A stretch of 64,000 nt of DNA, from NCBI RefSeq assembly GCF_045037415.1, contig NZ_CP173440.1; one strand, 5' to 3'. The DNA comes from Escherichia coli. Lineage in GTDB: Bacteria; Pseudomonadota; Gammaproteobacteria; Enterobacterales; Enterobacteriaceae. Of the stretch, positions 38,218-64,000 are shown piece after piece; within the stretch, counting starts at the first letter, position 1, and each line of letters opens with the position of its first letter. The position numbers and the translations under genes were made by a program. A model generated the notes under the pieces. It was given only the letters and a program-made list of their open reading frames with translations. It did no database searches and had not been told where the DNA came from.

Positions 38218-38243
38218 ATACACTTTTAACGAATAATCTCATT

Positions 38244-44299: not shown

Positions 44300-45135
44300 C
44301 CACTGACAGCATACTGCTTAACGACGGCTATTATATGCCCCGGCCAGGTTGTGGCCTCTGGCTGATTGACAACAGGGACGTTGACTCTCTGATCCGACAG
44401 GCATTGAAAGCAGGCTTCCGGCACTTTGACACGGCCCAGGCATATTTTAATGAAGATGGGGTAGGCCGTGCGTTACGGTATACCGAAGTACCGCGTGAGC
44501 AGTTGTTTATTACTTCTAAAATTCGCGGCAGGGATATGGGCTATGCACGTACGCTTGTCTCCTTTAACGAAACACTGGAGCGTCTGGGCGTCGAATACCT
44601 TGAGCTTTTTCTCATTCACTGGCCGATACCCGCAAAAAATTTGTATGTGGAAACCTGGGAAGCATCAATCGAGCTGGAGGCCAGCGGTCTGATTCGTTCC
44701 ATTGGTGTGTCCAATTTCACCTGCCAGCATATAGAGCGGCTTATAGAGGATACTGGTGTGGTGCCGGCTGTGAATCAGCTTGAACTGCATCCGCATTTTC
44801 AACAGTGTGATGTCCGTGATTATCATCATGAAGCCGGAATAGCCATTCAGAGTTACAGCCCTTTTGGTAGTAATGGTGCAGCAGTTTTACGCAATGCGGT
44901 GGTAATGGTTTTGGCAAGACGACATGACCATTCACCGGCTCAGATTGTACTTCGCTGGCATCTTCAACAAGGACTCACGCCTCTGCCCAGAACAACCAAT
45001 GGTGCACGATTTAGTGAAAACGTTGATGTCTGGGATTTTGAACTTTCAGAGGAAGAAATGAAACTTCTGGCGAGCCTCAACACACGAACCGGTAATACTC
45101 AACCCCTGCCCGATGCTATGAATATGTCGTTCTGA
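44296..45135 (+). CDS. aldo/keto reductase
   Basis: AKR hallmarks (…FDTAQAY…, LIHWP). Confidence 0.8.
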   Translation: MTTDSILLNDGYYMPRPGCGLWLIDNRDVDSLIRQALKAGFRHFDTAQAYFNEDGVGRALRYTEVPREQLFITSKIRGRDMGYARTLVSFNETLERLGVEYLELFLIHWPIPAKNLYVETWEASIELEASGLIRSIGVSNFTCQHIERLIEDTGVVPAVNQLELHPHFQQCDVRDYHHEAGIAIQSYSPFGSNGAAVLRNAVVMVLARRHDHSPAQIVLRWHLQQGLTPLPRTTNGARFSENVDVWDFELSEEEMKLLASLNTRTGNTQPLPDAMNMSF

Positions 45136-45328
45136 TGCTGAATGTATTACCACCGCTGAAGTAGTTTGTAGAGGGGCGCTAATGTCATTGGCATTACGTC
45201 CGCTCTTCGTTCACAGCGGACCGTCATGCCAGCTCAAAAAACAGGCTTAACGTAGGATATTTAATGAGATGGTCACTCCCTCCTTCCCGGTACTATGCTG
45301 AGGACAGGCTTTCATTCGGAGAACTATC

Positions 45329-46333
45329 ATGGAAAACATTGCGCTCATTGGTATCGATCTGGGTAAAAACTCTTTCCATATTCATTGCCAGGATCGTCGC
45401 GGGAAGGCTGTTTACCGTAAAAAATTTACCCGGCCAAAGTTGATCGAATTTTTGGCGACATGCCCCGCTACAACCATCGCAATGGAAGCCTGTGGCGGTT
45501 CTCACTTTATGGCACGCAAGTTGGAAGAGTTGGGGCATTCCCCAAAGCTGATATCACCACAATTTGTCCGCCCGTTCGTTAAAAGCAATAAAAACGACTT
45601 TGTCGACGCCGAAGCTATTTGTGAAGCTGCATCGCGTCCGTCTATGCGTTTTGTGCAGCCCAGAACGGAATCTCAGCAGGCAATGCGGGCTCTGCATCGT
45701 GTCCGTGAATCCCTGGTTCAGGATAAGGTAAAAACAACCAATCAAATGCATGCTTTTCTGCTGGAATTTGGCATTAGCGTTCCCCGAGGAGCTGCCGTTA
45801 TTAGCCGACTGAGTACCATTCTTGAGGATAATAGTTTGCCTCTTTACCTCAGCCAGTTATTGCTGAAATTACAACAGCATTATCACTATCTTGTTGAGCA
45901 GATTAAAGATTTGGAATCCCAGTTGAAACGAAAGTTGGACGAAGATGAGGTTGGACAGCGCTTGCTGAGCATTCCCTGCGTCGGAACACTGACAGCGAGT
46001 ACTATTTCAACTGAGATTGGCGACGGGAAGCAGTACGCCAGCAGCCGTGACTTTGCGGCGGCAACAGGGCTTGTACCTCGGCAGTACAGCACGGGAGGTA
46101 GGACGACATTGCTGGGAATTAGTAAGCGAGGTAATAAAAAGATCCGAACTTTGTTGGTTCAATGTGCCAGGGTATTCATACAAAAACTGGAACACCAGTC
46201 TGGCAAATTGGCCGATTGGGTCAGGGATTTACTGTGCCGGAAAAGCAACTTTGTCGTCACTTGTGCTCTGGCAAACAAGCTGGCCAGAATAGCCTGGGCC
46301 CTAACGGCACGACAGCAAACTTATGTAGCATAA
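45329..46333 (+). CDS. IS110-family transposase
   Basis: N-terminal IGIDLGKNSFH (DEDD-type) and C-terminal region typical of IS110 family. Confidence 0.75.
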   Translation: MENIALIGIDLGKNSFHIHCQDRRGKAVYRKKFTRPKLIEFLATCPATTIAMEACGGSHFMARKLEELGHSPKLISPQFVRPFVKSNKNDFVDAEAICEAASRPSMRFVQPRTESQQAMRALHRVRESLVQDKVKTTNQMHAFLLEFGISVPRGAAVISRLSTILEDNSLPLYLSQLLLKLQQHYHYLVEQIKDLESQLKRKLDEDEVGQRLLSIPCVGTLTASTISTEIGDGKQYASSRDFAAATGLVPRQYSTGGRTTLLGISKRGNKKIRTLLVQCARVFIQKLEHQSGKLADWVRDLLCRKSNFVVTCALANKLARIAWALTARQQTYVA

Positions 46334-46728
46334 CGGCAGAAATACACCGGTTTAAAGAATTACTGATCTGGTTTTGCGAATACTGATATTGATGATACTA
46401 ACGGCCCACCGGCCTGTTGAGGAACCTGTAAAACGGAAAGGCTCATTGAAGCCGTATATTTTCTGGAGGTTCATCAGGCGCGGAACTCATCAAGGCGCGG
46501 GAATAAAATCCCATTCAGACGCCGGATAGATTCAAGCAAGCCAACTTGTCGTCAAAATCGGTGTTGCAAAAACGGGAGTGACCATAGATTCCGTTTTCCA
46601 AGCGGACCCCTTACTATAAATTTTAAGCGATCACCTGACCTTCCCTGCTGCGGACTAAGTTCTAAGTGAAGAAATCCTTGTGATCTTTTTATCTACTGTC
46701 AGACGAACCACGATAATGCGTGTCGATG

Positions 46729-46755
46729 AGAAAAAAAAACACCTTATAAAGGTGG
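46729..46755 (-). terminator. rho-independent terminator of the H-NS-like gene
   Basis: Hairpin CACCTT-TATA-AAGGTG followed by T9 on the minus strand. Confidence 0.5.
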
Positions 46756-46779
46756 TTTTATATAGCTACGGAAAATTGT

Positions 46780-47178
46780 TTAGATCAGGAAATCTTCGAG
46801 AGTTTTTCCTGAATCCAACTGAGCTTTAATTGGTGCCGGGGTACGACCCTGACCTGTCCAAGTTTTTTGCTCACCAGCTTCGTCTATATAAGCATATTTC
46901 GCCGGACGAGGTTCACGCTTTTTTCGTACTTTAATGTTAACGGCCGCGTCCATCAGTTCATTCGGATCTATACCATCAGCGATTATCATTTCCCGGTACT
47001 GAGAGAGTTTTTCTAAACGCTCTCGATTAGCTGCTTCGGCCGCCTTTTCTTCTTCACTGCGTTCAGTGACTACAACAGTGAACTTTTCTAATACTTCTTC
47101 GAGCACTTCTAATGGCAGCTCTCGTGCCTGAGCGCGAAGTGTACGGATGTTATTGAGAACCTGTAATGTCTCGCTCAT
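46780..47178 (-). CDS. H-NS-family nucleoid-associated protein
   Basis: [20 protein letters not shown]…[16 protein letters not shown]…TWTGQGRTP matches H-NS/StpA along its length. Confidence 0.85.
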
Positions 47179-47514
47179 AGTTACCTCTTTAAGCACATTG
47201 TTATGCAGTTACATAACAACATTAAATTAATTAAAAATTTTCAGCAAGTGGCTTCGCAAGTTAAATTATTTCAATCGAAAAACATCTTAAAAAGGAATAG
47301 CTCTCATGCTGATTCTATCTTCCTTAGACAGGATACTTCCCAGTTTGTAAATTCACAATCTTGAAAAAAACACCTCAAAAAATCTGTCTCTTTGGTTATG
47401 AATTAATCGTTGAATTCAATGTAAAGAGGTGTTGTAATTGTAAAAGTCACCAGGCAAATAATCAATACAATTTAGTTCGATATAGTGAAGATCTAAATGT
47501 CATTCCTTATGTAT

Positions 47515-47994
47515 TTATTTATTCGCTTTGCGCCATTGACGTGGTTCAATCGAGTTCGGGTCCGACCACAGACCTTTACCTGCATTGCGAGCGTTCTGCT
47601 CAAGAGTCCCATATTCAGGTACAGTTAATCGACCCTGATAGCGATATGCCCAGGCCATGCCTTCTGCAACCATGATGGAATTAATATCCTGGCTTTTAAG
47701 ATAGATTGTACCAAGCATACGTCCATAGGCGTCCTGCCCATGGTCCTGAATATTTACAATCTGGTTTGCGACCAACTGGATCATTGTCTGCTTAGCCTTC
47801 TGCCCGAAGGCTTGCTTACTTTCAGGGGCATCAATTCCATAGAGCCGTATTCTTGTATTTATTGCACCGTCATAAGCCTGTACAGTATCACCATCAATTA
47901 CTCTGACAACTTTTGCCGAGAAAGTTTTGGCAATTGAAGTCAGCGGTGTTGTTAAAAGAAAAACAGCCAGCGGGAAAATGGCTAACTTGGTCAT
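47515..47994 (-). CDS. secreted thermonuclease (staphylococcal-nuclease-like) family protein
   Basis: Signal peptide and SNase-like motifs (VIDGDT…RLYGIDAPE…). Confidence 0.7.
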   Translation of the reverse strand: MTKLAIFPLAVFLLTTPLTSIAKTFSAKVVRVIDGDTVQAYDGAINTRIRLYGIDAPESKQAFGQKAKQTMIQLVANQIVNIQDHGQDAYGRMLGTIYLKSQDINSIMVAEGMAWAYRYQGRLTVPEYGTLEQNARNAGKGLWSDPNSIEPRQWRKANK

Positions 47995-48177
47995 CCGGAT
48001 GTTTATCATTGGTTGTCTCTGGGTGATAATCATAAAATGTGAGTTGAGGGTGAAATCACAACGATTTTGAAAATTTACTTTCAAAGTATTTGTTACTTTA
48101 TTAACTACATGCTATTGTGTCAATGTATATGAAAATTATTGCCAGAGGTGAATGACAACGCATCTCAGCTCAGTAAA

Positions 48178-48186
48178 GGGGGGGGG
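48178..48186. repeat. G9 homopolymer immediately 5' of an ATG
   Basis: GGGGGGGGG directly precedes the ATG at 48187. Confidence 0.9.
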
Positions 48187-49136
48187 ATGTCGACTGTTAA
48201 TGATGTGATTATATCTTTTGGGGATGACAGTAAAAGGTACTCAAGAGACTTCCAGACAAAAGACGAATTTAAAAAGAGCTGGTACGCAGTTTTGTCCCGG
48301 GCGCATGCTTCTGTAGAAGCTAAGGTTAGCTGCTCGTGTAAAGGCAAAGGACAGAAATCACTTTCCGTAAAATATAACTCTGGCGGTGATACTTATTTCT
48401 TGGCACGGTACCCAAATACGGGTAGTCAACATTCTCCCGACTCATGTATTTAATTGTAGGTGCATACCCTTCAACACCTCAGGTGATGAAAAATATAAAA
48501 ATGACATCAGATGCTCTGAAGAAAAAGGAGAGTTTGATTTGTCTCAATGTTCTATCGAAATACAACCCTGAAAAACATTCGAATACATCAAAACGACTTC
48601 CTGTCAAGTTCTTTTCTGGTGTTCTGATCGTGCTGATGAATACTGATAACTGGGCATCACTGGAGAAGAGATTCAGCTCTGAAATAGCAAATTGGCGTTC
48701 AGGAGGCAACGTCATCTGTATTGCTATAGGCGAGCTAGGTAAATTTAAGGGGAATGATATATACTATCTTAAAACACTTCAGATTGCTTTGATGAATGTT
48801 GATGATAACTAGATCCCGGCAGACTCGAGCTATGAACTGACCATGCTAAATTATCTTCATAAGCATGAGCGATCATTTATAAAACCTCTGAGATATGATG
48901 CTTCTAATAATGATGTATTCCCGGATTTCTGCCTGACGGATATAGGGAGTACTGAACTTTTTCCTATTGAGGTATTTGGTATGGATACTGCTTCATATTT
49001 GGCACGTAAGGTGATCAAAGAAAGTTACTATAATGAACGATATGGAAAGGATGGTTGGGCTTCATGGGAAGCACCGGCTGGCCCCCTCCCCATCTGCCCG
49101 ATAAGGCCAGCAGTTAACTACCAAATGCTTCTGTAA
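48187..49136 (+). pseudogene. possible single gene broken by one frameshift and one in-frame stop
   Basis: ORF 48139..48453 is in frame 1; ORFs 48444..48812 and 48843..49136 are both in frame 3, separated by a TAG at 48813. Confidence 0.25.
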
Positions 49137-49673
49137 GGGCTTCGGCCCTATTAAAAATATCAGCCATTTTTTAACACATAGTAATAGAATCCGATTCAAA
49201 GTGATTCTCACATGGTCTCAGAAAGTAACTTTTTTAGGTTAATCTTTGTTATAGAGCTATTAAACCATAACTTCTGAAAATATCTTTTATTCTTATCTTT
49301 CAGTTATCATAATGACTTTTTAGATTAAGCCCCTAGTTTGAATGTGTTTGTTTGAAAAAATATTTTATAAAACATATTATGGTTAATTATTTGGTTGATG
49401 TTTTATTTCAAACATATCTACTTTACTCCTGCATGGATAGGTCTGCACATCTTGCCGCAAGATCATAAAATAAAAGTACAATTATGCGTTCTATTGAAAA
49501 CAGGACCTGATATCATGGACGATTCCACTCCCCTGCTCGTTCCCCCAACCAAAAGATAAAAGTAACTTTTGAGGCTTAAAGGGTTTCATCCCTGATGTTC
49601 TTCATCCAGCGATTTTAATACTGCCCCATTAACCGGACAGAAATCATCCGAATATTTTCTTTTACATTGCCGC

Positions 49674-49732
49674 GCGCTACGTGAAATCTGACGTACTCAC
49701 CCCTCCGATTTTCTTCAGATTTCGCGTAGCGC
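49674..49732. repeat. 18-bp inverted repeat (one mismatch) with 23-nt spacer in an AT-rich non-coding region
   Basis: GCGCTACGTGAAATCTGA … TCAGATTTCGCGTAGCGC. Confidence 0.8.
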
Positions 49733-50521
49733 AACCTGGGCGGAAACCACTCGAAAAGTAACTTTTGGACAGATTTAGAAGCCGGTTACCCCCACTATTG
49801 TTATTAACATAATATTAACACAAGGAATAATCGTTATTATTCGAACTGTAACTAGGATGTTGCATACCTCTTGAAGCGATGAAAATATGAGCATATTTCT
49901 CATTATTCCTGAATCCATACATTTTTATTGTTTTTATAGCGACATATTGAAACTCTGTTTTATTTAATAAGTATCAATTTTATAATCAATTTCTGTTATT
50001 TTATCGCTATTGACATTTACTATTGTGACTATATCCAATGATATTAGATCACTTACATCTGAAAGTGACAGTGTCACGGATTGTGCACCCAGAGAGACCC
50101 TTTTCGTGAAAAAAGTAGTTCACTCCCATAACGAAACGTGGGCTTCTTTTTTGCAGATCGTATGTGGATGTCTTCAGGTAGCAGGAAGGAAAGTGATGCA
50201 GGCATGAAAGGATGACAAACCGGCAAAGGGGCTGCTACTGCTCCATATTCAACAAACCACCCCTGGTTAGTTGAATCCTTTGCCGGTTTTCCTGACAATA
50301 CCAGACAGGTAAACTTTTTCCATCAGATTTTCTCGTCAACATGTTGCATTCATAGTTTTTCCATAATTGGATGCTTTTGCAGGACAACTACGGTTTTTAT
50401 CCTTTCGTGCCCGGTAAAAAAAATAGTTAAATAGCGATTTCACCCTTTTAAAGGAAAAATTGTCCTCAGGCTCACAGTACTATAAAAGTATCAATAATCA
50501 GGAGCCGGTAATGACTCCAAC

Positions 50522-51025
50522 TTATTGATAGTGTTTTATGTTCAGATAATGCCCGATGACTTTGTCATGCAGCTCCACCGATTTTGAGAACGACAGCGAC
50601 TTCCGTCCCAGCCGTGCCAGGTGCTGCCTCAGATTCAGGTTAAGCCGCTCAATTCGCTGCGTATATCGCTTGCTGATTACGTGCAGCTTTCCCTTCAGGC
50701 GGGATTCATACAGCGGCCAGCCATCCGTCATCCATATCACCACGTCAAAGGGTGACAGCAGGCTCATAAGACGCCCCAGCGTCGCCATAGTGCGTTCACC
50801 GAATACGTGCGCAACAACCGTCTTCCGGAGCCTGTCATACGCGTAAAACAGCCAGCGCTGGCGCGATTTAGCCCCGACATAGCCCCACTGTTCGTCCATT
50901 TCCGCGCAGACGATGACGTCACTGCCCGGCTGTATGCGCGAGGTTACCGACTGCGGCCTGAGTTTTTTAAGTGACGTAAAATCGTGTTGAGGCCAACGCC
51001 CATAATGCGGGCGGTTGCCCGACAT
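50522..51025 (-). CDS. insB: IS1 InsB
   Basis: 167-aa product matches IS1 InsB. Confidence 0.9.
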
Positions 51026-51219
51026 CCAACGCCATTCATGGCCATATCAATGATTTTCTGGTGCGTACCGGGCTGAGAAGCGGTGTAAGTGAACTGCAGT
51101 TGCCATGTTTTACGGCAGTGAGAGCAGAGATAGCGCTGATGTCCGGCAGTGCTTTTGCCGTTACGCACCACCCCGTCAGTAGCTGAACAGGAGGGACAGC
51201 TGATAGAAACAGAAGCCAC
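50944..51219 (-). CDS. insA: IS1 InsA
   Basis: 91-aa product matches IS1 InsA (…[32 protein letters not shown]…). Confidence 0.9.
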
Positions 51220-51252
51220 TGGAGCACCTCAAAAACACCATCATACACTAAA

Positions 51253-51843
51253 TCAGTAAGTTGGCAGCATCACCAACCTTATGTACCTTTTGCAGCCAAA
51301 TTTTCTTGTTATTTTGCTTTGGTAGCATGATAGCATTTTTTCTTCAATTTTTAGTTGACTTTTTATTTCATTAATGCCCCCATTTTTCAGTAGGCATTGC
51401 AGCACTGCTTGTTCCTTTTTTGTTAGCCGTGGATAATGGTTTACAATTCGGCTAACATTTTTCTTTAAGAATGCAAAATATAGTTTTTCAATATTATTTT
51501 TTACATTTCCTTGCATGTTAACATAGATGTCATAATCACACCCTTTAGGATAAAACCGCCCCCCCCCCGAAACGTCAAGCCACATCCATTGGCTTATCAT
51601 ATTTAATGATCCCCTTAACATTTTGTACCCTCCCCATTTCCCTGAATAAAAAATCCTGCTGTCAACCAATACTCTTATGTTTCTTTTGTGCTTAATTGCT
51701 ATTGATTTATTAACTACTCCTTCATATGTAATATGAAACAGAGGTAGTCCAGTTAACTGCTTTAGGCCATAATAAAAAAAATAATCATCAGTCAACACTA
51801 TGTTTACATCCTTGTTACATATAAAGTAAATATATTTTTCCAT
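51253..51843 (-). CDS. LuxR-type HTH regulator, 3' end fused to the IS1 terminus, with internal G10 tract
   Basis: C-terminal LuxR-like HTH (LTKKEQAVLQCLLKNG…KITRKFG). The last ~7 codons come from IS1. The C10 run at 51559-51568 encodes GGG within the ORF. Confidence 0.45.
   Translation of the reverse strand: MEKYIYFICNKDVNIVLTDDYFFYYGLKQLTGLPLFHITYEGVVNKSIAIKHKRNIRVLVDSRIFYSGKWGGYKMLRGSLNMISQWMWLDVSGGGRFYPKGCDYDIYVNMQGNVKNNIEKLYFAFLKKNVSRIVNHYPRLTKKEQAVLQCLLKNGGINEIKSQLKIEEKMLSCYQSKITRKFGCKRYIRLVMLPTY
51559..51568. repeat. C10 homopolymer (G10 on the coding strand) inside the LuxR-type ORF
   Basis: Ten consecutive C at 51559-51568. Confidence 0.9.
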
Positions 51844-52376
51844 AGAAACAGTAACTTTGATCCATCAATATTCATCCAAAAATATTTTATAAGCATTAAA
51901 AAAAAAAACAACAGAGAATCATTTCTCTTGAAAGTCGTTGGTTACAATTTTTAATGAATAAAAATTCAATCAATCACGGTAAATAGTCATTTTTTTTGTC
52001 TTTGCGTGTTTGCAATTAATTGATCTTTTTTTTTAACCCGCCCCCCTTTATTTTGTCAGTTTGCTTAATAATTCACGATTAAAGATGTGTGGGGAGGGGC
52101 GAGTTTAGGACTTATTTTAAAATCCTTATCAAATAAATACTTTCGCAAAAAACAATTCGCTTAGTAATACTGTCTGTTTCTATAATAACCATGGTAATTA
52201 GATTTCTGAAAAATATGTTCAGATTACCACTAGTGTAACAGTTGGTGCTTGGGAGTTATTTGGCGATTGATCCGACCACATGATCCAGGCTAAATACCCT
52301 CAAAGTAAATTAATATATTGTTCTCCTTGATATCCGGCCCATTTTTTGATTTAATTTCAAATGATAACTGTATAAG

Positions 52377-53039
52377 GTGCAATCAATGAGTAATACTGAT
52401 AACGGGACGAAGATCTACACTCCATTAACTCTGAAACTATATGACTGGTGGGTGCTTTGCATTTCGAATAGTTACGCATGGAATTGTTCAACAAAGGATA
52501 TTTTAATTCCTTATTTTTTACAAAACTTAAGTCCTAACCACCTAGATATTGGCGTTGGTACTGGTTATTATCTCACTAAAATCCCTGCTCACTATAATAT
52601 ATCCCTCATGGATCTTAACCCTGCCAGCTTGAAAGCTGCATCGGCAAGAGTAGGGGAAGATAGAATACACTATAAAGTTAGGCATGATGTATTTGAATCT
52701 TACCCAGAGGAACTTCATGGAAAATTTGATTCCATATCAATGTATTACCTCATCCATTGTCTACCAGGAACAATGGAAGATAAAAGAATTGTCATAAAAA
52801 ACGCGAAGGCCGCCTTAACTAAAGGTGGAATACTTTACGGAGCAACCATACTTGGTGATAAGGTAAGGCATAATAGTTTTGCGTTAAAACTGTTGCAAAT
52901 TTATAACAAAAAAGGTATTTTTTCTAATTTTAGTGATTCAGAAGAAGAACTAAAAAAAATGCTTTCTCATTATTTTAAAAATATTGATGTCATTGTGAAA
53001 GGTGCTGTCGCAATGTTCTCTGCGCATGGAAAAAAATAG
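52377..53039 (+). CDS. class I SAM-dependent methyltransferase
   Basis: DIGVGTGYY (motif I). Paralog of the ORF at 61472..62179. Confidence 0.55.
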   Translation: MQSMSNTDNGTKIYTPLTLKLYDWWVLCISNSYAWNCSTKDILIPYFLQNLSPNHLDIGVGTGYYLTKIPAHYNISLMDLNPASLKAASARVGEDRIHYKVRHDVFESYPEELHGKFDSISMYYLIHCLPGTMEDKRIVIKNAKAALTKGGILYGATILGDKVRHNSFALKLLQIYNKKGIFSNFSDSEEELKKMLSHYFKNIDVIVKGAVAMFSAHGKK

Positions 53040-53399
53040 CTATTTATCATTTTTTCCTGGATTTATCTTTTTTAAAAACACCTTGTGAACTGATCCCATA
53101 GTTTATATTAAGCGACTAACAGGGCTTGGGTTCGGTCCTCTACCGGACTCAGGCCTTTTTGTTTTATTCTTTCATGGTTGTAATAGTGGATGTACTCATC
53201 TATAGCCATGCGCAACTAGCTGATATTCTTATGTTCCTTCAGGTAAAAACATTCAATCTTTAGCGTACCGAAGAAGCTTTCCATTACTGCATTGTCGTGA
53301 CATTTTCTCTTTCTTGACATGCTCTGTTTCAGGCCGCTGCCCTTAAGTCGCTTCTGATAATACGCCATCTGGTAGTGCATCTAATTAGTAGAACATGTA

Positions 53400-54110
53400 T
53401 TTTTCAATGAAGGCCCCGATGACTTTTTCATGCAGCTCAACAGAGCGTGAGAAACAGACGGTCGGCGAGCCAGGCGTTTGATTCGGGTTCTCAGCGTCAG
53501 ATTGTTTCGCTCAATGCGCTGAGTAGAGATTTTGCCGGTCAGATGCTTATCCTTCGGCACCTCTCTGGCGTAACTTCCCAGTCATCGCTGGTTATTATGC
53601 TGATATTAAACGGTGTGAGCAGAGCCAGCAGCGCACTGCAGGTTGCATCGGTCCGTGGCCCAAAAGTATAGGCCAGCACACCACCTGTTTTCGTGTTGTA
53701 CGCGTACCAGAGCCAGTGCTACCGGGCTTTGCTGCCGACCTCCATTGCTCGTGGAGTTCGCAGATGAGCGCCACATCGGCATGAGCAACCGGAGATGTGG
53801 TTACTCGTCGTGGCGCGAGTTTTTTAAAGTGCGAATAACGGTGTTAATGCCGATTTTGAGTGTCCTTGCGGTATCACAGACGCCGGCTCCGTTGAATGCC
53901 ATTTCGGTAATTTTCTCTTTGACGCCGTGCTTGCGTGCTTCATAAGTATAAGTGAGCAGAAACACGCGGTAGCAATCGCGGCAGCGAAACCGGTCACGGC
54001 CTTTAGGGCTCTGCCTGTGGCGGAAAACTTGGTCAGACTGACAACGGGGGCAATGAACGGTAACGCTGGTCATGAACAAACCTCAAAAGCACGCATCATA
54101 CATCAATTCA
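53400..54110 (-). mobile_element. degraded IS1-family element (divergent isoform) next to an IS3-family fragment
   Basis: InsA-like ORF 53801..54079 (…CPRCQSDQVFRHRQSPKGRDRFRCRDC…); InsB-like region 53430-53800 is frameshifted; IS3-type OrfB piece at 53200-53400. Confidence 0.55.
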
Positions 54111-54221
54111 ATTAATTAGAGGCATTGATCTCCTCCCTGAAAACAGTGCCGTCTCCTCGCCTCGTGAGCTCACACCAACAGAAGCACCGGCAGAAATAAG
54201 AATCCCTGGTTTCTCCTGATA

Positions 54222-55651
54222 CTATTTAATAATTTCTGACAGGGCCTGACCTGCTTTCTGAATATAAACTGGTTGCGAGACCTCACCCAGCTGATTGGCA
54301 ACCATCCGGGTTTCATAATGACTGGCAGTTAATACCAGAGCTGGCCCGTGAATACAGGACAGTTGTTCAACTACTGCCTTTAACCATTGACCTGAAAATA
54401 TCTGTTCTTTCGGGTCATCGAACACCTTTGGAAAATCAGCACCGGCGATGGTCAGCTTCATTGAGCCATAGACGTCTGGGGAGAATATTTTCCTGATTGA
54501 AATCGTATCGCTGGTTAACCCCAGAGCTTTACATAACCACTCCATTCCGGTCTCTGGGGTACTGGTAATAGAGAGGGTAGCCGACGTCAGTAACGCACTA
54601 CGCCACTGAGTGCAGTATCTGCCCACATTCATCCCGATAAACGGGTTTACAGCGATCAGGGCTGGTTCACGACGTTTATTGGAAACGCCTACGCCCTTTT
54701 GCCCCCGGACAATCCGAGCATATCCCTGCTGTAGATACAGTCAAAGAAAGCTTTCCGGGCCGCTTCATTTTTTATTTTCCGCCCTACCTTTGATAAGGCG
54801 TTAAAGCTATTGTCAAACAAGGCAACCGCTGCAGGCGTACTACAAAAATGCAGATCGCCCGCTATCGAAGTCACGTCGTTCATTAACTGGTCGATGACAT
54901 GCACGCCATTACGTGGAATATGTTCATTGAACGCACTAGTCAACTCTCTGAGGTTGAAGCGCCGCTGTTTCCAGACCTCAAGCATATCTACAAAAATGTC
55001 TGCCTCATCAATAATGAGGTACATATTTTCTTTGTCACCGAGGATGCGGTGATTACACATACAGTCGACCATTACCATCGCATGGGTCGTAACAATAAAG
55101 TTAGCACTGAGAGCATTCAGGCGAATATCATCAATGTCCTGTATATCATCCCAGATGGAGTAGGTGACCATCTCTGGCGTGATCTGCGCTGGCAGTTCAC
55201 CATACTCTTCTTCAAACTCAACCAGAGGTTTTGACCAGTTAGCGAGTTTTTCAAGGACCTTAACCGTATCCAGATCGGTAAATTCGTCCATGAGTAACAG
55301 TCCACGTACTTTCTCCAGGGATACGTAATTTACTTTCCCCATAAGCCGGGAAAAAGTAACTTTTATGCCGCATTGTTCAGCTATCTGTTCAAGGAGAGGA
55401 CGATCGCTTCTGAATATCTGGTGCATCAGTGCATGAGAATTCGTGGCAATCACAAATTTTGCCTCAGGGTTTTTCAGCAGAATCAGAAGCGCCGGTACCA
55501 GATAGCCCAGCGTTTTTCCTACACCTGTTTCAGCACTAATCAGTGCAACTTTATGATCCTGAGTCAGTGCACCAGCTGCAGCCTCGATATAATCCTGTTG
55601 GACCTTACGTAACGACAATCCGGCAGACTCAAATACCGCTGATGTATTCAT
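54222..55651 (-). pseudogene. DinG/Rad3-like SF2 helicase, frameshifted and C-terminally truncated
   Basis: Walker A ETGVGKT and LIIDEAD in ORF 54689..55684; LLTSATLS in ORF 54222..54632 in a different frame. The gene ends against IS-derived DNA. Confidence 0.5.
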
Positions 55652-55653
55652 GA

Positions 55654-56220
55654 CTACTGCCCCGCCAGATGCATGAAACCGCAACCAAATACGCGTTTAG
55701 GGCCTACGCCATAAACGATTCCCACTTCAGCTTCCTGTTGATTGCTGATTATGGCGGTACCCTGTACCGTGAATACGGGTAGCGTAAAACCACGTCCAGC
55801 ATTTCCTTTGTCGATATGGACGAATTTCGGGCCACTGACGACGATTTGACCGGGTTTAAACCCAGCCTTCGCTAATTTGGTGAGGGCCAACTGATAACTA
55901 GCCTCTTCAGATGGAGCAAACTGGCGTCGGCCACGGCCTTCTGACTTTGTTCCTTTATGAAAGATGGCCATTAACGTAATGAACTTGATTTCATGGCCCT
56001 CAGAGAGAATAAGCTCTCTTTTTTTCTCCCCAGGCAACTCCAGAGCTGTAGCTGTGCGGACCAGGAGTAACGAATCATCCCCGGTACCGGGAAAAATTTT
56101 AAAAGAGTACGGCAGCTTCTCTCCCTTACGTTCCTGCATGAAAAAATCCAGGTGCTGGTGGATCTGGTAAACACTTGTGTGACGGATACGCAACCGAAAC
56201 GCATTATCGTAGTAAATCAT
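55654..56220 (-). CDS. hypothetical protein, translationally coupled upstream of the helicase gene
   Basis: 188-aa ORF; stop overlaps the probable helicase start (ATGA). Confidence 0.35.
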   Translation of the reverse strand: MIYYDNAFRLRIRHTSVYQIHQHLDFFMQERKGEKLPYSFKIFPGTGDDSLLLVRTATALELPGEKKRELILSEGHEIKFITLMAIFHKGTKSEGRGRRQFAPSEEASYQLALTKLAKAGFKPGQIVVSGPKFVHIDKGNAGRGFTLPVFTVQGTAIISNQQEAEVGIVYGVGPKRVFGCGFMHLAGQ

Positions 56221-56276
56221 GGTTATACCTTTTTCAAGAGGTGCAAAATGCTCAGGCGTTGATGGGGATCAGTCGG

Positions 56277-57332
56277 GGCTTTGTTGAATAAATAAGATTT
56301 CGTGCGAACGACCCTGTAGCTGGCTGGATTTTCAGGCAATACGCACGCTTTCTGGCATCCCAGCCTTTGTCATCCTGTTCAACGCACGCACCATGGCCAT
56401 AGCTTCCGCTACCTGACCATCGTAGTCACGCAGCGTCAGTGAATCTCCCAACAACTGCTTCATTCTGTACATTGCCGTTTCCGCTATCGAGCGACGGTTA
56501 TATTCCGTTGTCCATTTCCACCGTGCATTGCTTCCGCTCAGCCGCTGATTAGCAACGGCACGGTTGCGGTCTGCGTACTCACCGGGCCAGTAACCTGCTC
56601 CTTTTCGGGGAGGAATAAGCGCGCTGATTTTTTTGCGGCGCATTTCATCGTGACAAAGCCGTGTATCGTAAGCCCCGTCTGCCGCGGCTGCCCTGATTTT
56701 TCTGTGAGTCTGCCGGATAAGGCCCGGGAAGGCTTCTGAGTCCGTGACGTTATTCAGCGACAGGTCTGCACAGACAACTTCATGTGTGTTGCTGTCAACA
56801 GCAAGATGCAACTTTCGCCAGATACGACGGCGCTCTTTGCCGTGCTTTCTGACTTTCCATTCGCCTTCACCAAAGACCTTCAGCCCGGTGGAATCAATCA
56901 CCAGGTGTGCGATTTCACCCCGGGTGGACGTTTTGAAACTGACATTAACCGACTTTGCCCGCTTACTGACACTGGTGTAATCCGGGCAGCGCAACGGAAC
57001 GTTCATCAGGGCAAAAATGGAATCAATAAAACCCTGCGCAGCCCGCAGGGTCAGCCGGAATACGCGTTTAATCACCAGAACGGTGGTGATGGCGAGATCA
57101 GAATAGCGCTGGGGCCTTCCTCGTGATGAAGGCGTTGCCGACTCATACCAGGCCTGAATCGCCTCATCATCCAGCCAGAAAGTGAGGGAGCCACGGTTGA
57201 TGAGAGCTTTGTTGTAAGTGGACCAGTTGGTGATTCTGAACTTTTGCTTTGCCACGGAATGGTCTGAGTTGTCGGGAGGATGCGTGATCTGATCCTTCAA
57301 CTCAGCAAAAGTTCGATTTATTCAACAAAGCC
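56277..57332 (-). mobile_element. IS903 (IS5 family), 1056 bp, no target-site duplication
   Basis: Terminal inverted repeats GGCTTTGTTGAATAAAT at both ends; flanking 9-mers differ. Confidence 0.95.
56332..57300 (-). CDS. IS903 transposase
   Basis: Near-identical to IS903/IS102 transposase (…KFRITNWSTYNKALINRGSLTFWLDDEAIQAWY…). Confidence 0.95.
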   Translation of the reverse strand: MKDQITHPPDNSDHSVAKQKFRITNWSTYNKALINRGSLTFWLDDEAIQAWYESATPSSRGRPQRYSDLAITTVLVIKRVFRLTLRAAQGFIDSIFALMNVPLRCPDYTSVSKRAKSVNVSFKTSTRGEIAHLVIDSTGLKVFGEGEWKVRKHGKERRRIWRKLHLAVDSNTHEVVCADLSLNNVTDSEAFPGLIRQTHRKIRAAAADGAYDTRLCHDEMRRKKISALIPPRKGAGYWPGEYADRNRAVANQRLSGSNARWKWTTEYNRRSIAETAMYRMKQLLGDSLTLRDYDGQVAEAMAMVRALNRMTKAGMPESVRIA

Positions 57333-57543
57333 CTTTGACATGCACAATTATTGTCTGCCCAATAGTCCGATAGTTAGCCTGTTTACAAAAACTGTTGCTG
57401 GTCATACTGGTGCTTTATTCCCGGTTAAGCGGGCTAGTTAACCCAGAGTGATGAACCATCCTGGAGTGGCAGATAAAGCAGAAAGAATGGATTTGTTGCC
57501 CTGATTTTTTCCGAATCTAAATAAAGATTAGCTTAATCACTCG

Positions 57544-57561
57544 TTGTTATGTTATAACATT
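57544..57561. promoter_or_regulatory. Zur-box-like operator
   Basis: TTGTTATGTTATAACATT, the best match to the window consensus. Confidence 0.55.
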
Positions 57562-57565
57562 AAAT

Positions 57566-57817
57566 TAGCAATATTCTCAGCCAGCAGCACGGCCTGTGGG
57601 GGGCGGTTATTGAGAACGAATTCGGTGAAATCTGTATAGATGATGCATTGGTTATCAATGCAGATGAAGAAGTCTTCGAGATGAATAATGGCTGCATCTG
57701 CTGCACGGTGCGAGGAGATTTGATTCATATCCTGAGTCGTCTGATGTACCGCCGCGATAAATTTGACCGTATTCTGATCGAATTCCACCGGGATGGCCAA
57801 TCTACTGAGTGAAGCAA
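57566..57817 (+). pseudogene. COG0523 GTPase fragment (CxCC region only)
   Basis: Unannotated plus-strand frame reads …VIENEFGEICIDDALV…EEVFEMNNGCICCTVRGDL… The P-loop N-terminus and the C-terminal domain are absent. Confidence 0.5.
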
Positions 57818-57999
57818 ATGAAGAGAGAGCCGCTAACGATCCTGAATGGTTTTCTTAGTCCTAGTAAAAACATGCGGTTAAAAATTTGTTAATGCAGACA
57901 CCTCAACCACAATTTCGATGTGCGTCATCGTGAACGATTTGAGCGGACAGGATGTCGGCGGCGTCCTGATTGCCAGTATAGAAATCAAGAAGGAACACC

Positions 58000-58827
58000 A
58001 TGAAGCGCAATACCGTAAGTAATCTGACAGAAAAAGATGATTTTGATACGCTGGAAAGTATTCTCAGCGTTAATATTCATTCTCTGTTGCGGCCAGACGG
58101 CGGGACGTTGCTTTCTGACGTCCATTTTGCGGTCAAAGCAGGAGAATGTCTGGCCATTATCGGGCCTAACGGCAGCGGTAAAACTTCCCTCGTGAGAGCG
58201 ATTAGTCAGGAACTGACCCATCTAAAGGGGGACATTCTTCTGCGGGGCCGTTCTATGTCTGCTTTATCCCGTCAACAGCGAGCCCGGCTGGTTGCTGTTT
58301 TGGCCCAGAATGATACACCTGATACGAGATTATCCCTTGAGGATTATGTAGCGCTGGGGCGTATCCCTCATGCCGGGGATGTACCGCGTAATGTACATGA
58401 CGCGATTGTAGCAAATGCCATTAAAGAAACCGGATTACAACGGCTACGCAGGCGGTCACTTTTATCGCTTTCCGGCGGCGAAAGACAACGAGCGGCGCTG
58501 GCACGGGTACTGGCACAGACGCCCGACCTGGTATTGCTTGATGAACCCACCAATCATCTCGATCCTCCCGGGCGCGAGGAACTGCTTTCCCTTGTAAAAA
58601 ACAAGGGGATTGCCGTCGTGGCGGTGTTGCACGATCTGACACTGACAGAATCATTTGCTGACCGTGTTCTCCTCTTGTCGCAGGGGCAATCAGTGATCTG
58701 TGACACACCGGAGAAGGTATTGGTATCAGAATACCTTTATCCCGTTTTTGGCTTGACCAGTTTTACCGTACCGCATCCCCATACAGGAAAGGCGTTGCGT
58801 ATTTTTGAAGTTCCGCATTATGTATAA
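58000..58827 (+). CDS. ABC transporter ATP-binding protein (FecE/FhuC/BtuD-like)
   Basis: GPNGSGKTS, LSGGERQR, LLDEPT. Confidence 0.8.
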   Translation: MKRNTVSNLTEKDDFDTLESILSVNIHSLLRPDGGTLLSDVHFAVKAGECLAIIGPNGSGKTSLVRAISQELTHLKGDILLRGRSMSALSRQQRARLVAVLAQNDTPDTRLSLEDYVALGRIPHAGDVPRNVHDAIVANAIKETGLQRLRRRSLLSLSGGERQRAALARVLAQTPDLVLLDEPTNHLDPPGREELLSLVKNKGIAVVAVLHDLTLTESFADRVLLLSQGQSVICDTPEKVLVSEYLYPVFGLTSFTVPHPHTGKALRIFEVPHYV

Positions 58828-58845
58828 ATTACTTTCCGAGAGTCA

Positions 58846-59805
58846 GTGATGAAAAAATTGTTTATATCCCTGCTGTCGGTACTGTCTGCTTCAGTAGCCA
58901 GTGCTGCCGATTTTCCTGTTACTATTGAAAGTTGTGGGACTCCTGTAACATTCTCCGGCCCGCCGAAAAGGGCTGTGATCAACGACCTTAATATGGCAGA
59001 GATGGCGTTTGCACTGGATTTGCAGGATCGTATTGTTGGGCTGACCGGTATTAGTGGCTGGTACAAAATGACGCCGGAATTTAAAAAGGCGATGGGCTCG
59101 ATCCCTGAACTGGCACCCAAATATCCCACCCTGGAAACATTGCTGGCAGCCGAGCCTGATTTCTTTTTCGCTGGCTGGAACTATGGAATGAAAGTAGGCG
59201 GCGAAGTGACGCCGGATACGTTAAGCAAATATGGCATCAAGACTTTCGTTCTGAGTGAAAGCTGTGTGTTCACCACTGCGCACAAAAATAAAGCCACGAT
59301 GGATCTGCTGTATAACGATATCCTCACGCTGGGTAAGATTTTTGGCAAGCGCAATGACGCACTGTCCCTAGTCAGCGGCTGGCAAAAGAGGCTGAGTGAA
59401 CTGCCGAAGCCAGCGGCAGGTACCCGTCCTTTAAAGGTGTTCGTCTACGACTCAGGTGAGGATAAACCGTTTACCAGTGGTAAATATGCGATGCCTACGG
59501 CCATGATTGAGGCGGCTGGTGGTAAAAATGCAATGGAGGCGCTGGATACCAGTTGGGGAACGACGTCTTGGGAAAGCGTGGCCGCTACTGAGCCGGACTT
59601 CATTATTTTGTTAGATTACCAGACGGGCAGCGGTGCGGATACACTGCGTCATTTTCTTGAGAATCATCCGTTAATGAAACTGACTCCGGCTGTTCAGCAT
59701 CATCGATACCTGAAATTACAATATGCTGAACTGACGCCGGGACCAGCTAATGTTGGTGCGGTGGAAAAACTCGCGTGGGCAATGTACCCGACAGAAGCGA
59801 AGTGA
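58846..59805 (+). CDS. class III periplasmic binding protein (FecB/FhuD/BtuF-like)
   Basis: Signal peptide; size and pattern of chelate/cobalamin-type binding proteins. Confidence 0.65.
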   Translation: MMKKLFISLLSVLSASVASAADFPVTIESCGTPVTFSGPPKRAVINDLNMAEMAFALDLQDRIVGLTGISGWYKMTPEFKKAMGSIPELAPKYPTLETLLAAEPDFFFAGWNYGMKVGGEVTPDTLSKYGIKTFVLSESCVFTTAHKNKATMDLLYNDILTLGKIFGKRNDALSLVSGWQKRLSELPKPAAGTRPLKVFVYDSGEDKPFTSGKYAMPTAMIEAAGGKNAMEALDTSWGTTSWESVAATEPDFIILLDYQTGSGADTLRHFLENHPLMKLTPAVQHHRYLKLQYAELTPGPANVGAVEKLAWAMYPTEAK

Positions 59806-60809
59806 TGCTCATGTCGTACCGTTATCACTGGGTGATGTGGGGATCGATGGTCGTGCTGATTGGGTTAATGTTATTCAGCATAACCAGAGGGACAGTCTCA
59901 CTGTCGCTAATGCAGGTGCTGGGTGCACTGAAGATTGTGGATGAGCCGGTATCTGCCATGGTCAGCAGAATTGTGACGGATTTACGCGTACCGAGGATGT
60001 TGCTCTCTGTGCTGACAGGGGCGGGACTGGCAATGGTAGGGGCATTGTTACAAACTACCACCCGTAACGATCTGGCTGATCCTTTTTTATTCGGGTTATC
60101 CTCCGGTGCGTCAGCAGGAGCGGTGCTGGTGATCACCCGTTTTGGTGATCGACTAGGAGTATTAACGCTCCCCGTATCGGCGTTTGTTGGTGGTGTGTGT
60201 TCCGCCATAGCAGTAATGCTGTTATTTCATTTTAAAAAGCAACGCGGAGCTGAGCATCTAATTCTCTGCGGTCTTGCCATCTCTTTTTTGTTCGGGGCGC
60301 TGACTAGTTATTTTATTTTTTCGGGCGATCAGCGAGCCGCCAGCTCAGTGCTTTTCTGGTCACTGGGTGGCCTGGGATTAGCCACCTGGAATAATTTGCC
60401 TTTTGCAGTGTTCAGCCTGGTATTGCTGTTTGCCTTTGTCCTGTTGCGGTGGCGCTCTCTGGATGGTGTGCTGGCAGGAGAACAAACAGCGTTGTCGCTG
60501 GGGATTAACGTGAGTCGTCTGCGCATCGAGATTTTTCTTTGTTGTGCACTGGCAACATCGTTGATGGTGGCATTAACCGGCGTGATTGGATTTGTTGGCT
60601 TAATGGTGCCTCATCTGTGTCGGCATTTTGCAGGAGTTAAGCATCTGTTGTTGTTACCTCTGTGTGGCGTCTGGGGTGCAATATTACTGTGTGTCGGCGA
60701 TATAGTCAGCCGGACGATACTGGCACCACAGGAACTACCAATTGGCATTATTACGGCGGGCATTGGAGGGTTGTTTATTATCATGTTACTCGCGCGAAAC
60801 TCGCCCTAG
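59805..60809 (+). CDS. FecCD-family ABC permease
   Basis: Multi-TM protein with FecCD-like motifs; TGATG stop/start overlap with the binding-protein gene. Confidence 0.7.
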   Translation: MLMSYRYHWVMWGSMVVLIGLMLFSITRGTVSLSLMQVLGALKIVDEPVSAMVSRIVTDLRVPRMLLSVLTGAGLAMVGALLQTTTRNDLADPFLFGLSSGASAGAVLVITRFGDRLGVLTLPVSAFVGGVCSAIAVMLLFHFKKQRGAEHLILCGLAISFLFGALTSYFIFSGDQRAASSVLFWSLGGLGLATWNNLPFAVFSLVLLFAFVLLRWRSLDGVLAGEQTALSLGINVSRLRIEIFLCCALATSLMVALTGVIGFVGLMVPHLCRHFAGVKHLLLLPLCGVWGAILLCVGDIVSRTILAPQELPIGIITAGIGGLFIIMLLARNSP

Positions 60810-61129
60810 AGAATATGGGCGATTACTCGCCGGGCCTCCTGTAATTTTCAAGCGATGTTATGAAACGATGGTAATCTAACTGATGGTTTGAGCGTGCCAT
60901 GTAAGTAAAGAAGAACTGGCAAACCTTAATGTTGCATTATATCATAACAAATGATAAGTGAGGCCCAATGTTTCTCTTACTGGTCGTGCTCCCAAGCATG
61001 CCTTTGGCGAAAAGGTTAGACCTCAGGCTGCGTTCAGCAACTACATGATATCTGTCTGGATTGTGACGGAGATGCGGTACTACTGCTTGTGGTTCAAAAA
61101 GGTGAAGCCTGCCACACAAGTCGGCGGAG

Positions 61130-61552
61130 TTGTTTTTACAACGCTACCGCCGGCCTTTTCATCCGACCCGTTTCTGGCAGGTGATGGAAAATGAGCTGGA
61201 TGAAGTCGTCAGATCAAAAGGTTACTTCTGGCTGGCCAGCCGTCCGGAATTCGCAGGTTCATGGTCACAGGCTGGTGGCATTGCGCGCCAGGCGCTGGGG
61301 GGCATGTGGTGGGCGAGTGTGCCGAAAGAACGTTGGCTAGAGGATGCTGAGTCACTGAAGTTCATCATGTCTAACTGGATAGATGGCATTGGTGATGCCC
61401 GTCAGGAACTCGTTTTTATTGGAATGGATATGAATGAATCAAAACTGCGCAACAGACTGGATTCCGCCCTGTTAACGGATGCAGAAATGGCTGAAGGGCC
61501 TCAAAATTGGCGGCATTATCCCGATCCTGTTGAGCCTTGGTTCGAAGAATGA
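61130..61552 (+). pseudogene. C-terminal fragment of a COG0523 gene (about 95% identical to the C-terminus of the 30714..31937 product)
   Basis: …[18 protein letters not shown]…PVEPWFEE aligns to the C-terminus of the 30714..31937 protein; no N-terminal GTPase domain. Confidence 0.6.
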
Positions 61553-62179
61553 ATCGAAGGCACCCGTATTTGTCGGGTGCCTTCGTATGAGGGCGAAAAA
61601 GGGGCCATTTTTTAGCCCTTCTTCAGAATCACTCATATTAGAAAAAATACCTTTGTGATTATAAATCCTCATTAGTTTTGATGTGAAACTATTATGCATT
61701 ACCCCATCGCCAAGTATGGTTGCCCCGTAAAGTATTCCGTCCTTAGTTAAAGCAGCTTTCACGTTTTTTATGACAACACCTTTATCCACCATCGCCCCAG
61801 GAAGACAATGTAAGAGATAATACATTGATATAGAATCGAATTTACCATGTAGTTCCTCTGGATAAGATTCAAATACATTATGCTGAACTTCATACCGTAT
61901 TCTGGCTTTCCCTATCCTTGCTGATGCCGTTTTCAAACTAGCCTTATTGAGATCCATAAGTGAGATATTGTAATTTGCAGGAGCTTTGGCAAGATAATAC
62001 CCAGTTCCAACGCCAATATCTAAATGGTTAGGTCTTAAATTTTGTAAAAAATAAGGGAGCAAAATCTCTTTTGTCGGACAATGCCAAGCGTAACTGTTGG
62101 AAATGCTCAGCACCCACCAGTCATAAAGCTTCAAAGTGAATGGTGTGTAGATCTTCGTTCCTTCATCAACATTACTCAT
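61472..62179 (-). CDS. class I SAM-dependent methyltransferase paralog; 3' end altered by a junction with the COG0523 fragment
   Basis: Matches the 52377..53039 product for about 190 aa (…DIGVGTGYY…) and then diverges into sequence antisense to the COG0523 fragment. Confidence 0.45.
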   Translation of the reverse strand: MSNVDEGTKIYTPFTLKLYDWWVLSISNSYAWHCPTKEILLPYFLQNLRPNHLDIGVGTGYYLAKAPANYNISLMDLNKASLKTASARIGKARIRYEVQHNVFESYPEELHGKFDSISMYYLLHCLPGAMVDKGVVIKNVKAALTKDGILYGATILGDGVMHNSFTSKLMRIYNHKGIFSNMSDSEEGLKNGPFFALIRRHPTNTGAFDSFFEPRLNRIGIMPPILRPFSHFCIR

Positions 62180-62404
62180 TAGTTATACCTTGCAACAGTC
62201 AATGTGGATAAGCAGAGCATATAGCAATATGCTCAATATCTCCTTTCTATTTTATCACGATTTTTTCCACTACTTACCAAGATTTACAACAAACAACATA
62301 TTATTGCAATGCATTGCCATTTTGTTCACATACTTGGCAATTTATAAGTATATTGCATAAATATAAAGTTGACTTTTAGAGTTCTTTTTTGTAGATAAAC
62401 TCTC

Positions 62405-62540
62405 ATGGAAATATGGAAATATGGAAATATGGAAATATGGAAATATGGAAATATGGAAATATGGAAATATGGAAATATGGAAATATGGAAATATGGAAAT
62501 ATGGAAATATGGAAATATGGAAATATGGAAATATGGAAAT
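62405..62540. repeat. 17 perfect tandem copies of the 8-bp unit ATGGAAAT
   Basis: 136 bp of uninterrupted ATGGAAAT repeats in the intergenic region. Confidence 0.95.
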
Positions 62541-62665
62541 GAGGTAAGAAACAGAAGACTATAAAATTTGAAGTCAAAAATGGTAACTGAGCTCCTCCTC
62601 GTTTGGGTGCTTAGGAGATATAACTAGTGGAGAATGAAATATAACTATTACTGCAAAATAACCTG

Positions 62666-63865: not shown

Positions 63866-63961
63866 AGCATCCAGCCTTATGCCGCTAAACGTTAATGCAA
63901 TCAAGTTGCAATAATACCGGCTTCCTGCCAGAATTCAAATGACATGACTCGGAGGGGGAAA

Positions 63962-64000
63962 TATGGCAACACCAGTAGCCAAAACGTATGACTGGAAGCA
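63962..64000 (+). CDS. zur: second copy of the Zur-like regulator gene, 5' end only (runs off the window)
   Basis: ATGGCAACACCAGTAGCCAAAACGTATGACTGGAAGCA matches the start of the 25669 gene with one substitution. Confidence 0.55.

Follow-up and report, generated by a model that had tools for sequence, protein, structure and literature searches.

IS1 and an IS903-like element as probable anchors of deletions around rmpA in a pK2044-like virulence plasmid

The stretch of DNA considered here (64,000 nucleotides of the Escherichia coli contig NZ_CP173440.1, assembly GCF_045037415.1; hereafter the window) belongs, by sequence comparison, to the pK2044/pLVPK-like IncHI1B/IncFIB family of virulence plasmids of Klebsiella pneumoniae. 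More than 120 K. pneumoniae plasmids match its positions 44000-64000 at ~100% identity, and the window is collinear with pK2044 (NC_006625.1, the complete reference from which the coordinates of the IS1 endpoints are taken) except at differences associated with insertion sequences (IS); window 1 to ~13,600 is a conjugative IncHI1B backbone, like that of NZ_CP061949.1. Two elements, an IS1 and an IS903-like element, stand on either side of a remnant of the rmp virulence region, and they are the main subject of this work:

50507-51274, reverse strand: IS1 (IS1A-type), 768 bp, intact, no target-site duplication
51275-51843, reverse strand: truncated rmpA, native codons 1-189 of 210 kept (translation compared with pK2044 RmpA)
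56277-57332, reverse strand: IS903-group (IS102/IS903-like) element, 1056 bp, transposase intact, no target-site duplication

An element of the IS1 family is expected to measure ~768 bp, to have terminal inverted repeats of ~23 bp starting GGT(A/G)ATG, and to contain the insA and insB frames. The copy in the window has 768 bp, the inverted repeats GGTAATGACTCCAACTTATTGAT and GGTGATGCTGCCAACTTACTGAT and open reading frames (ORFs) for InsA and InsB; relatives annotate it as IS1A, and both IS1 copies of pK2044 match it at 100% identity. Its right inverted repeat (IRR) begins at 50507 with GGTAATGAC and forms the left junction, while its left inverted repeat (IRL) ends at 51274 with GCATCACC and forms the right one; as described below, the former is fixed among relatives and the latter is variable. 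The duplication of 8-9 bp typical of the family is absent: when the 9-mers on either side were compared, the flanks TCAGGAGCC and AACCTTATG agreed at 0/9 positions, and at no more than 4/9 when the boundaries were shifted by ±2 bp. Such a duplication is a property of the insertion event and not of membership in the IS1 family, and its absence shows that this copy is no longer in the state of a simple insertion. The second IS1 of pK2044 (74216-74983 on the pK2044 segment) is also without a duplication (flanks GTATCGAGC and GACACCACT); it cuts short a backbone gene with a thioredoxin fold, intact at window 2889-3617, and the homology between the window and pK2044 at this gene stops exactly at the boundary of that IS1.

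The IS903 group was evaluated in the same way, the expectation being ~1057 bp, perfect 18-bp inverted repeats GGCTTTGTTGAATAAAT(C) and one DDE transposase of ~307 amino acids. The element at 56277-57332 has 1056 bp, perfect inverted repeats of 17-18 bp and an intact ORF of 322 codons, for which the annotation is IS5 family transposase. Its IRR (56277, flank ATCAGTCGG) forms the variable junction and its IRL (57332, flank CTTTGACAT) the fixed one. The 9-bp duplication is again missing, the two flanks agreeing at 3/9 positions and at no more than 4/9 with shifts of ±2 bp. The same 1056-bp element occurs elsewhere, in pKp_T69_1 (NZ_CP084824.1; hereafter T69), between perfect 9-bp copies of TCTTCAACG, which indicates that both its boundaries and the expected length of the duplication are sound. 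An earlier reading of the window, made from the sequence alone, had stated that IS1 and IS903 lack target-site duplications, and for these two elements the statement holds.

The left (DUF1173-side) junction of the IS1, at which AATCAGGAGCC meets GGTAATGAC, is the same in the window, pK2044, NZ_CP061949.1, phvKpST395_NDM1_1657 and p1878-217k, and indeed in every relative examined. On the right, the end of the IS1 (GGCAGCATCACC) is followed by different non-IS1 sequences, which correspond to four positions of pK2044:

pK2044 type: IRL flank GACACTTCC, pK2044 position 31620, adjoining the RES/Xre toxin-antitoxin genes; no loss; 282 PLSDB records
phvKpST395_NDM1_1657: IRL flank GATAAGCAG, pK2044 position 13755, iroN, last 87 bp; loss of 17,865 bp relative to pK2044
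NZ_CP061949.1: IRL flank TATATAATC, pK2044 position 12107, rmpC; loss of 19,513 bp relative to pK2044; 2 records
window: IRL flank AACCTTATG, pK2044 position 11269, rmpA; loss of 20,351 bp relative to pK2044; 2 PLSDB records besides the window

Between the window and the ST395-type plasmid with the iroN endpoint, identity is 100.000% in the 11,226 bp right of the junction and 99.986% in the 7,275 bp left of it, and the sole difference between them is an additional loss of ~2.48 kb that begins exactly at the end of the IS1. The step from the iroN type to the window would thus be the most recent deletion of the series. It is well known that IS1 prefers AT-rich targets, and the three derived endpoints, located in AT-rich DNA (84th, 98th and 97th percentiles of the deleted interval), fit this preference. 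Microhomology at the deletion joint was considered and discarded: the 6-bp BLAST extension past the IS1 is an artefact of gapped extension (GACACTT in pK2044, AACCTT in the window).

The native sequences that once continued on each side of the IS1 can be recognized in other plasmids. The uninterrupted backbone site, in which AATCAGGAGCC (ending in TCAGGAGCC) runs into TTACTATGAC, is present in 388 IncHI1B backbone plasmids and leads into a hypothetical gene and psiA, and T69 and ~160 other plasmids show the native continuation past the IRL junction of pK2044 without an IS1. Both continuations are absent from complete pK2044. For the IS1 and the IS903-like element together, the native continuations compared with it were T69 5871-7893 and 33248-36737, the CP052539.1 segment 5722-8927 and the upstream region of a further relative segment (L006); since these are missing from a complete replicon, the DNA was lost and not moved. 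Queries built from an IS end, a duplication and the native continuation found IS1 with a duplicated TCAGGAGCC at the backbone site in 0/389 records.

The IS903-like element presents the mirror image of this situation. Its right (ABC-transporter-side, IRL) junction with CTTTGACAT is constant among relatives, while the left one varies: in window coordinates it is 56276 for pK2044 and the window itself (329 records), 54596 for NZ_CP026587.1 and 54391 for NZ_CP132650.1, and in T69 it is formed by unrelated Rpn-side DNA. In IncFIB/FII plasmids that lack the element, the right flank continues natively into a fragment of an ABC-ATPase gene (GAGCTCAGACAG followed by CTTTGACATGCAC; uninterrupted in ~79 records), and in pKPN-bbef and T69 the left flank runs natively into IncHI1B backbone on the cas6 side. 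A simple insertion of the element at the ABC-ATPase site was found in 0/80 records with the same type of junction query, and its two flanks are contiguous in 0/999 records. The comparison with related genomes that had been recommended together with the sequence-only reading therefore gave none of the contiguous flanks or simple insertions that would have spoken against it. A match of the right flank that apparently extends 8 bp into the left flank is a chance likeness of 6/8 (TCAGACAG and TCAGTCGG).

Around its IS903-like copies, T69 shows further peculiarities. Inverted duplicate segments of a RES-domain gene (3980-4806 and 37794-38620) lie outside two of these copies and bracket the whole fec-iro-rmp-cas6 segment, and the fec-RES/Xre region is present in a second copy (6470-13879 compared with 197968-205377 of the record). 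Either a composite-like structure or faulty assembly could account for this arrangement.

Taken together, the IS1 has four IRL-side endpoints and one IRR-side junction, the IS903-like element has at least three nested IRR-side endpoints and one IRL-side junction, the fixed junction of either element is unchanged over hundreds of related plasmids, and the intervening DNA was lost from complete pK2044, neither inverted nor relocated. A fixed junction, a junction that varies on one side only, an intact IS, the loss of the interval and the lack of a duplication constitute the classical signature of an adjacent deletion anchored by an IS. Both elements are therefore probably the surviving anchors of one or more such deletions and not simple insertions. 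The sequence-only reading had attributed missing duplications to adjacent deletions or IS-mediated recombination; this explanation suits the IS1 and the IS903-like element, with their fixed and variable junctions, and fails for the ISL3 and ISNCY copies, for which the premise itself was wrong.

The deletions were presumably made by the transposases rather than by homologous recombination between copies, and intramolecular transposition is the most likely route. According to this mechanism, one end of the IS would attack a target in the adjoining DNA, the interval between the IS and the target would leave as a circle, and the IS would be joined directly to its new target without a flanking duplication, the opposite junction staying as it was. 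The facing variable ends (IRL of the IS1, IRR of the IS903-like element) would in this manner erode the virulence segment from both sides; the window retains only 5.0 kb of the segment between the two elements. Both copies are intact and potentially active.

The behaviour of these elements resembles that of systems described long ago. The classical adjacent deletions of IS1 (gal/Tn9, intramolecular replicative transposition) show the same fixed and nested junctions, intact IS1, lack of the 9-bp duplication and AT-rich endpoints; unlike them, the present series comes from natural plasmid lineages and not from selected laboratory mutants, its dependence on the transposase is presumed, and the initial simple insertion is not among the sampled states. 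The adjacent deletions of IS903/IS102 (IS5 family) likewise share with the window an intact element, 18-bp inverted repeats, a 9-bp duplication upon simple insertion (as in T69) and one constant and one variable junction, whereas the element in the window has 1056 bp, is annotated only as “IS5 family” and has a history that may involve recombination between copies.

Several considerations weigh against this interpretation. Among the records compared, no ancestor was found in which the IS1 or the IS903-like element is a simple insertion with its duplication, and even the IS1 of pK2044 is without a duplication, so the first event at each IS is not reconstructed. IS903 copies of the T69 type join larger rearrangements, and the history of IS903 may include recombination between copies. 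The same exact IS1-rmpA junction is shared by two haplotypes, which is unexpected for a random one-off event. Finally, transposition in one step and insertion of a second copy followed by recombination give identical products, indistinguishable from what is observed, and the sequence cannot separate them.

In the two-step version, the second copy would insert in direct orientation at the future endpoint, and RecA-dependent recombination would then delete the interval and leave a single hybrid copy with mismatched flanks. States with several copies do occur: pK2044 contains an identical pair of IS1 and a near-identical pair of IS903-like elements, and T69, with rearranged flanks, has at least four IS903-like copies. 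However, two events are needed for each of the three nested IS1 endpoints and the at least three IS903 endpoints, and intermediates that have gained the IS1 but kept the far side amount to 0 of ~447 records at the rmpA site and 0/449 at the rmpC site, the IRL junction being carried only by deletion products. This alternative is considered unlikely.

It has also been considered that the mismatched flanks could come from inversion between inverted copies, from the formation or resolution of cointegrates, or from misassembled repeats. Virulence plasmids of hybrid or rearranged structure are common, T69 has inverted duplications beside its IS903-like copies, and the IncHI1B backbone meets the virulence region at the IS1 of the DUF1173 site, where the first event could have been a fusion. 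Nevertheless, the flank 9-mers of all the IS1 and IS903-like copies of complete pK2044 were searched in both orientations for reciprocal duplications and had no partner: none of the four flank 9-mers adjoins another IS end, and no sign of inversion or cointegration appeared. The native continuations are, moreover, absent from the replicon rather than relocated, and the same junctions recur in hundreds of complete assemblies of independent origin as well as in short-read contigs, which excludes an assembly artefact. Overall, these origins appear very improbable. The idea that the IS1 and the IS903-like element are the two ends of one composite transposon was also rejected, the two being of different families, with conserved outer and variable inner junctions.

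Lastly, the two elements might be simple insertions with duplications altered by point mutation, or with wrongly placed boundaries (conceivable for the IS903-like element, one base shorter than the canonical 1057 bp, where a G/C extends the palindrome by one base). This is hardly credible, given that the flanks agree at 0/9 and 3/9 positions and never beyond 4/9, that the same 1056-bp element has a perfect duplication elsewhere, and that in the empty-site comparisons, which refute this option, the two sides of each IS lead into distinct sequences unrelated to one another and are contiguous in no record.

The junction shared by two haplotypes deserves further attention. The window has six single nucleotide polymorphisms (SNPs) in common with ST395-type plasmids (46739, 46984, 48760, 51335, 57784 and 61684); among them, 48760 lies 1.7 kb to the left of the IS1, and 51335 follows the junction on the right at a distance of 60 bp. 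The plasmid p1878-217k, with an identical IS1-rmpA junction, has the pK2044 allele at 6/6 of these sites and IS5075 in place of the IS4321 of the window. Either IS1 hit the same nucleotide twice, or the junction passed from one co-resident plasmid to another by a crossover within those 60 bp. The former, somewhat doubtful, would mean that the junction of the IRL with pK2044 position 11269 arose independently at least twice, once in the pK2044-like non-conjugative lineage (p1878-217k, CP139220.1) and once in the conjugative ST395-type hybrid lineage of the window. SNP 51335 corresponds to approximately codon 171 of RmpA and changes Thr to Met (EEKTL to EEKML) in the window and the ST395-type hybrids with respect to pK2044 and T69.

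The gene reached by the deletion is rmpA. The ORF at 51253-51843 encodes residues 1-189 of RmpA followed by LVMLPTY, seven residues encoded by the IS1, and a stop codon; the match to the GerE/LuxR helix-turn-helix domain covers profile positions 3-54 of 57. The truncated LuxR-type regulator noticed at an IS border in the sequence-only reading is thus rmpA, and it was indeed cut there, by the deletion anchored at the IS1. Comparison with the gene map of pK2044 and alignment indicate that rmpD, rmpC, peg-344, iroBCDN, fecIA and the RES/Xre genes, formerly downstream, are gone. The 196-amino-acid fusion of RmpA and IS1 is found in public databases as WP_404999125.1 under the name “mucoid phenotype regulator RmpA”, on 3 contigs, the longest of 353 kb, and the same structure occurs in two more assemblies.

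The loss of iroBCDN and the variable state of rmpA in truncated and hybrid virulence plasmids are well documented in the literature. Among these, the iro-deleted pLVPK-like plasmids of ST11-KL64 and the IncHI1B(pNDM-MAR) hybrids belong to the same family as the window and share with it the loss of iroBCD(N) and a variable rmpA; compared with the iro-deleted plasmids, the deletion in the window is rarer and deeper, reaching into rmpA. A 25-kb deletion containing iroBCDN has been described in ST11-KL64 plasmids, with an IS110 element hypothesised as its cause (PMC11465609), whereas the iro and rmp losses of the plasmids compared here start exactly at the IRL of one resident IS1.

Between the two elements, and immediately beyond them, lie the following remnants and genes:

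52377-53039, forward strand: class I S-adenosylmethionine-dependent methyltransferase, intact
53371-54130, reverse strand: divergent IS1-family element, InsA ORF (53801-54079) intact, InsB region broken
54131-55684, reverse strand: truncated dinG (csf4), remnant of the type IV-A3 CRISPR-Cas system of the IncHI1B backbone
55654-56220, reverse strand: cas6-like gene (annotated Cas6/Cse3/CasE), intact
~57567-57800, forward strand: COG0523/CobW GTPase fragment, Pfam profile positions 19-90 of 180

The divergent IS1-family element, which the sequence-only reading had not listed, has ~41% amino acid identity to InsA/InsB of IS1 and ends that resemble IS1 inverted repeats; its flanks ACGCCATCT and TCCTCCCTG show no duplication. 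It adjoins exactly the truncated end of dinG, so that the helicase fragment had been wrongly assigned to the borders of the IS1 or the IS903. Its presence in pK2044 and T69 as well implies that this is an old junction between the CRISPR-Cas remnant of the backbone and the segment with rmpA and the methyltransferase gene. The dinG remnant lacks its last ~380 nucleotides and is interrupted internally by a frame disruption (ORFs 54222-54632 and 54689-55684). Window 54156-56276 corresponds to pKPN-bbef segment 3678-5799 at 96.7% identity, where Csf2, a helicase and Cas6 are annotated; the type IV-A3 remnant itself, with the dinG/csf4 fragments and cas6, spans window 54131-56220, and the full locus with Csf2 is found in pKPN-bbef. 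The IS903-like element is located 56 bp upstream of the cas6-like gene, within what is the preceding backbone gene of relatives. On its other side, the CobW fragment begins 230 bp away and is equally fragmentary in NZ_CP072201.1, which has no IS903-like element at that site; the fragment therefore predates this element and was not produced by it, contrary to what had been supposed.

The remaining insertion sequences mentioned in the sequence-only reading are simple insertions with their duplications in place:

10022-11353 with duplications (element 10030-11345), forward strand: ISL3-family element (ISCfr12-like), 1316 bp
11363-13678, forward strand: pdif-like site (11363-11390) and ISKpn21 (ISNCY/IS1202 family; 11396-13673, 2278 bp)
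13900-15239 with duplications (element 13905-15234), reverse strand: IS2-like element, 1330 bp, 5-bp duplication GATAG

The ISL3-family element has inverted repeats beginning with GGGTCTTCCC and ending with GGGAAGACCC, a 406-amino-acid transposase annotated as ISCfr12-like and an 8-bp duplication, ATATATAT, at 10022-10029 and 11346-11353, generated in the palindromic target ACTGTATATATATACAGT. In CP052539.1, which contains ISKpn21 and lacks the ISL3 element, the empty site AAAGCACTGTATATATATACAGTCTGG is shorter than the combined flanks of the window by exactly 8 bp, that is, by one copy. This empty site rules out the other possible delimitation, in which ATATATAT would be part of the inverted repeats of a 1342-bp element without a duplication (matches to ISKox3 and ISEc53 run through it). 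Consequently, ATATATAT is target DNA, and these ISL3 elements share a palindromic, AT-rich target; the duplication is easily missed because such a target resembles an extension of the inverted repeat.

ISKpn21 was evaluated by its length of 2278 bp, its 25-bp terminal inverted repeats, its 5-bp duplication and its insertion beside a dif-like site, at a distance of 5 bp on the XerC side; this length, duplication and placement are the published values for the IS (PMC10132070). The copy in the window has all of them, and matches in other contexts span exactly 2278 bp. Its duplication, AATGC, is located at 11391-11395 and 13674-13678, pK2044 has the corresponding empty site GCGCACTAATGCTGTCAGCAC, and the dif-like site, 5 bp from the IS on the XerC side, has the arms AGTGCGCTTAA-TGTGCG-TTATGTTAAAT. 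The published example CP079726 (PMC10132070) has the same XerC/XerD arms and the same duplication (GCATT); as nothing material differs, the window holds a textbook copy. On the reverse strand, the pdif site (11363-11390) reads TTATGTTAAAT-CGCACA-TTAAGCGCACT; it adjoins ISKpn21 and is separated by 9 bp from the palindrome in which the ISL3 element inserted, so that a pair of site-selective IS has landed side by side.

The GATAG duplication of the IS2-like element had been recognized in the sequence-only reading, and it is present; the claim that it was the only intact one does not hold, since the ISL3 and ISNCY copies, reported to lack duplications, have them on both sides and have empty sites in CP052539.1 and pK2044, respectively. 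Palindromic or very short duplications escape reading by eye, and the question is settled by comparison with the empty site.

Two other features of the window differ among its relatives. The first is IS4321 (IS110 family, 1327 bp, window 45263-46589), which has no duplication and occupies its canonical target, a relic of the 38-bp terminal repeat of the Tn3 family (GGGGTCCGCTTGGAAAACGGAAAATATCCTACG); this site is empty in pK2044, and it is here that p1878-217k carries IS5075. The second is a perfect tandem repeat of 17 copies of ATGGAAAT at window 62405-62540, downstream of a COG0523 GTPase gene, with 12 copies in NZ_CP061949.1 and phvKpST395_NDM1_1657 and 14 in p1878-217k.

The deletions next to the IS1 and the IS903-like element are real, and they are explained by long-known IS biology acting on a heavily studied plasmid family. 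What has been lost through IS-anchored deletions is the set of salmochelin genes, together with the greater part of the rmpADC mucoidy locus, and, as the rmp region lies between two inward-facing IS ends with past activity, further loss is to be expected. A plasmid like the one in the window scores as rmpA-positive by polymerase chain reaction or by a simple gene search; with rmpA truncated and rmpD, rmpC, peg-344 and the salmochelin locus gone, hypervirulence calls based on genotype could be wrong. If the junction did arise more than once, the AT-rich 3′ region of rmpA would be a nucleotide-precise hot spot for IS1, and IS1 would represent a recurrent, convergent route by which the rmpADC hypermucoviscosity of virulence plasmids is switched off.

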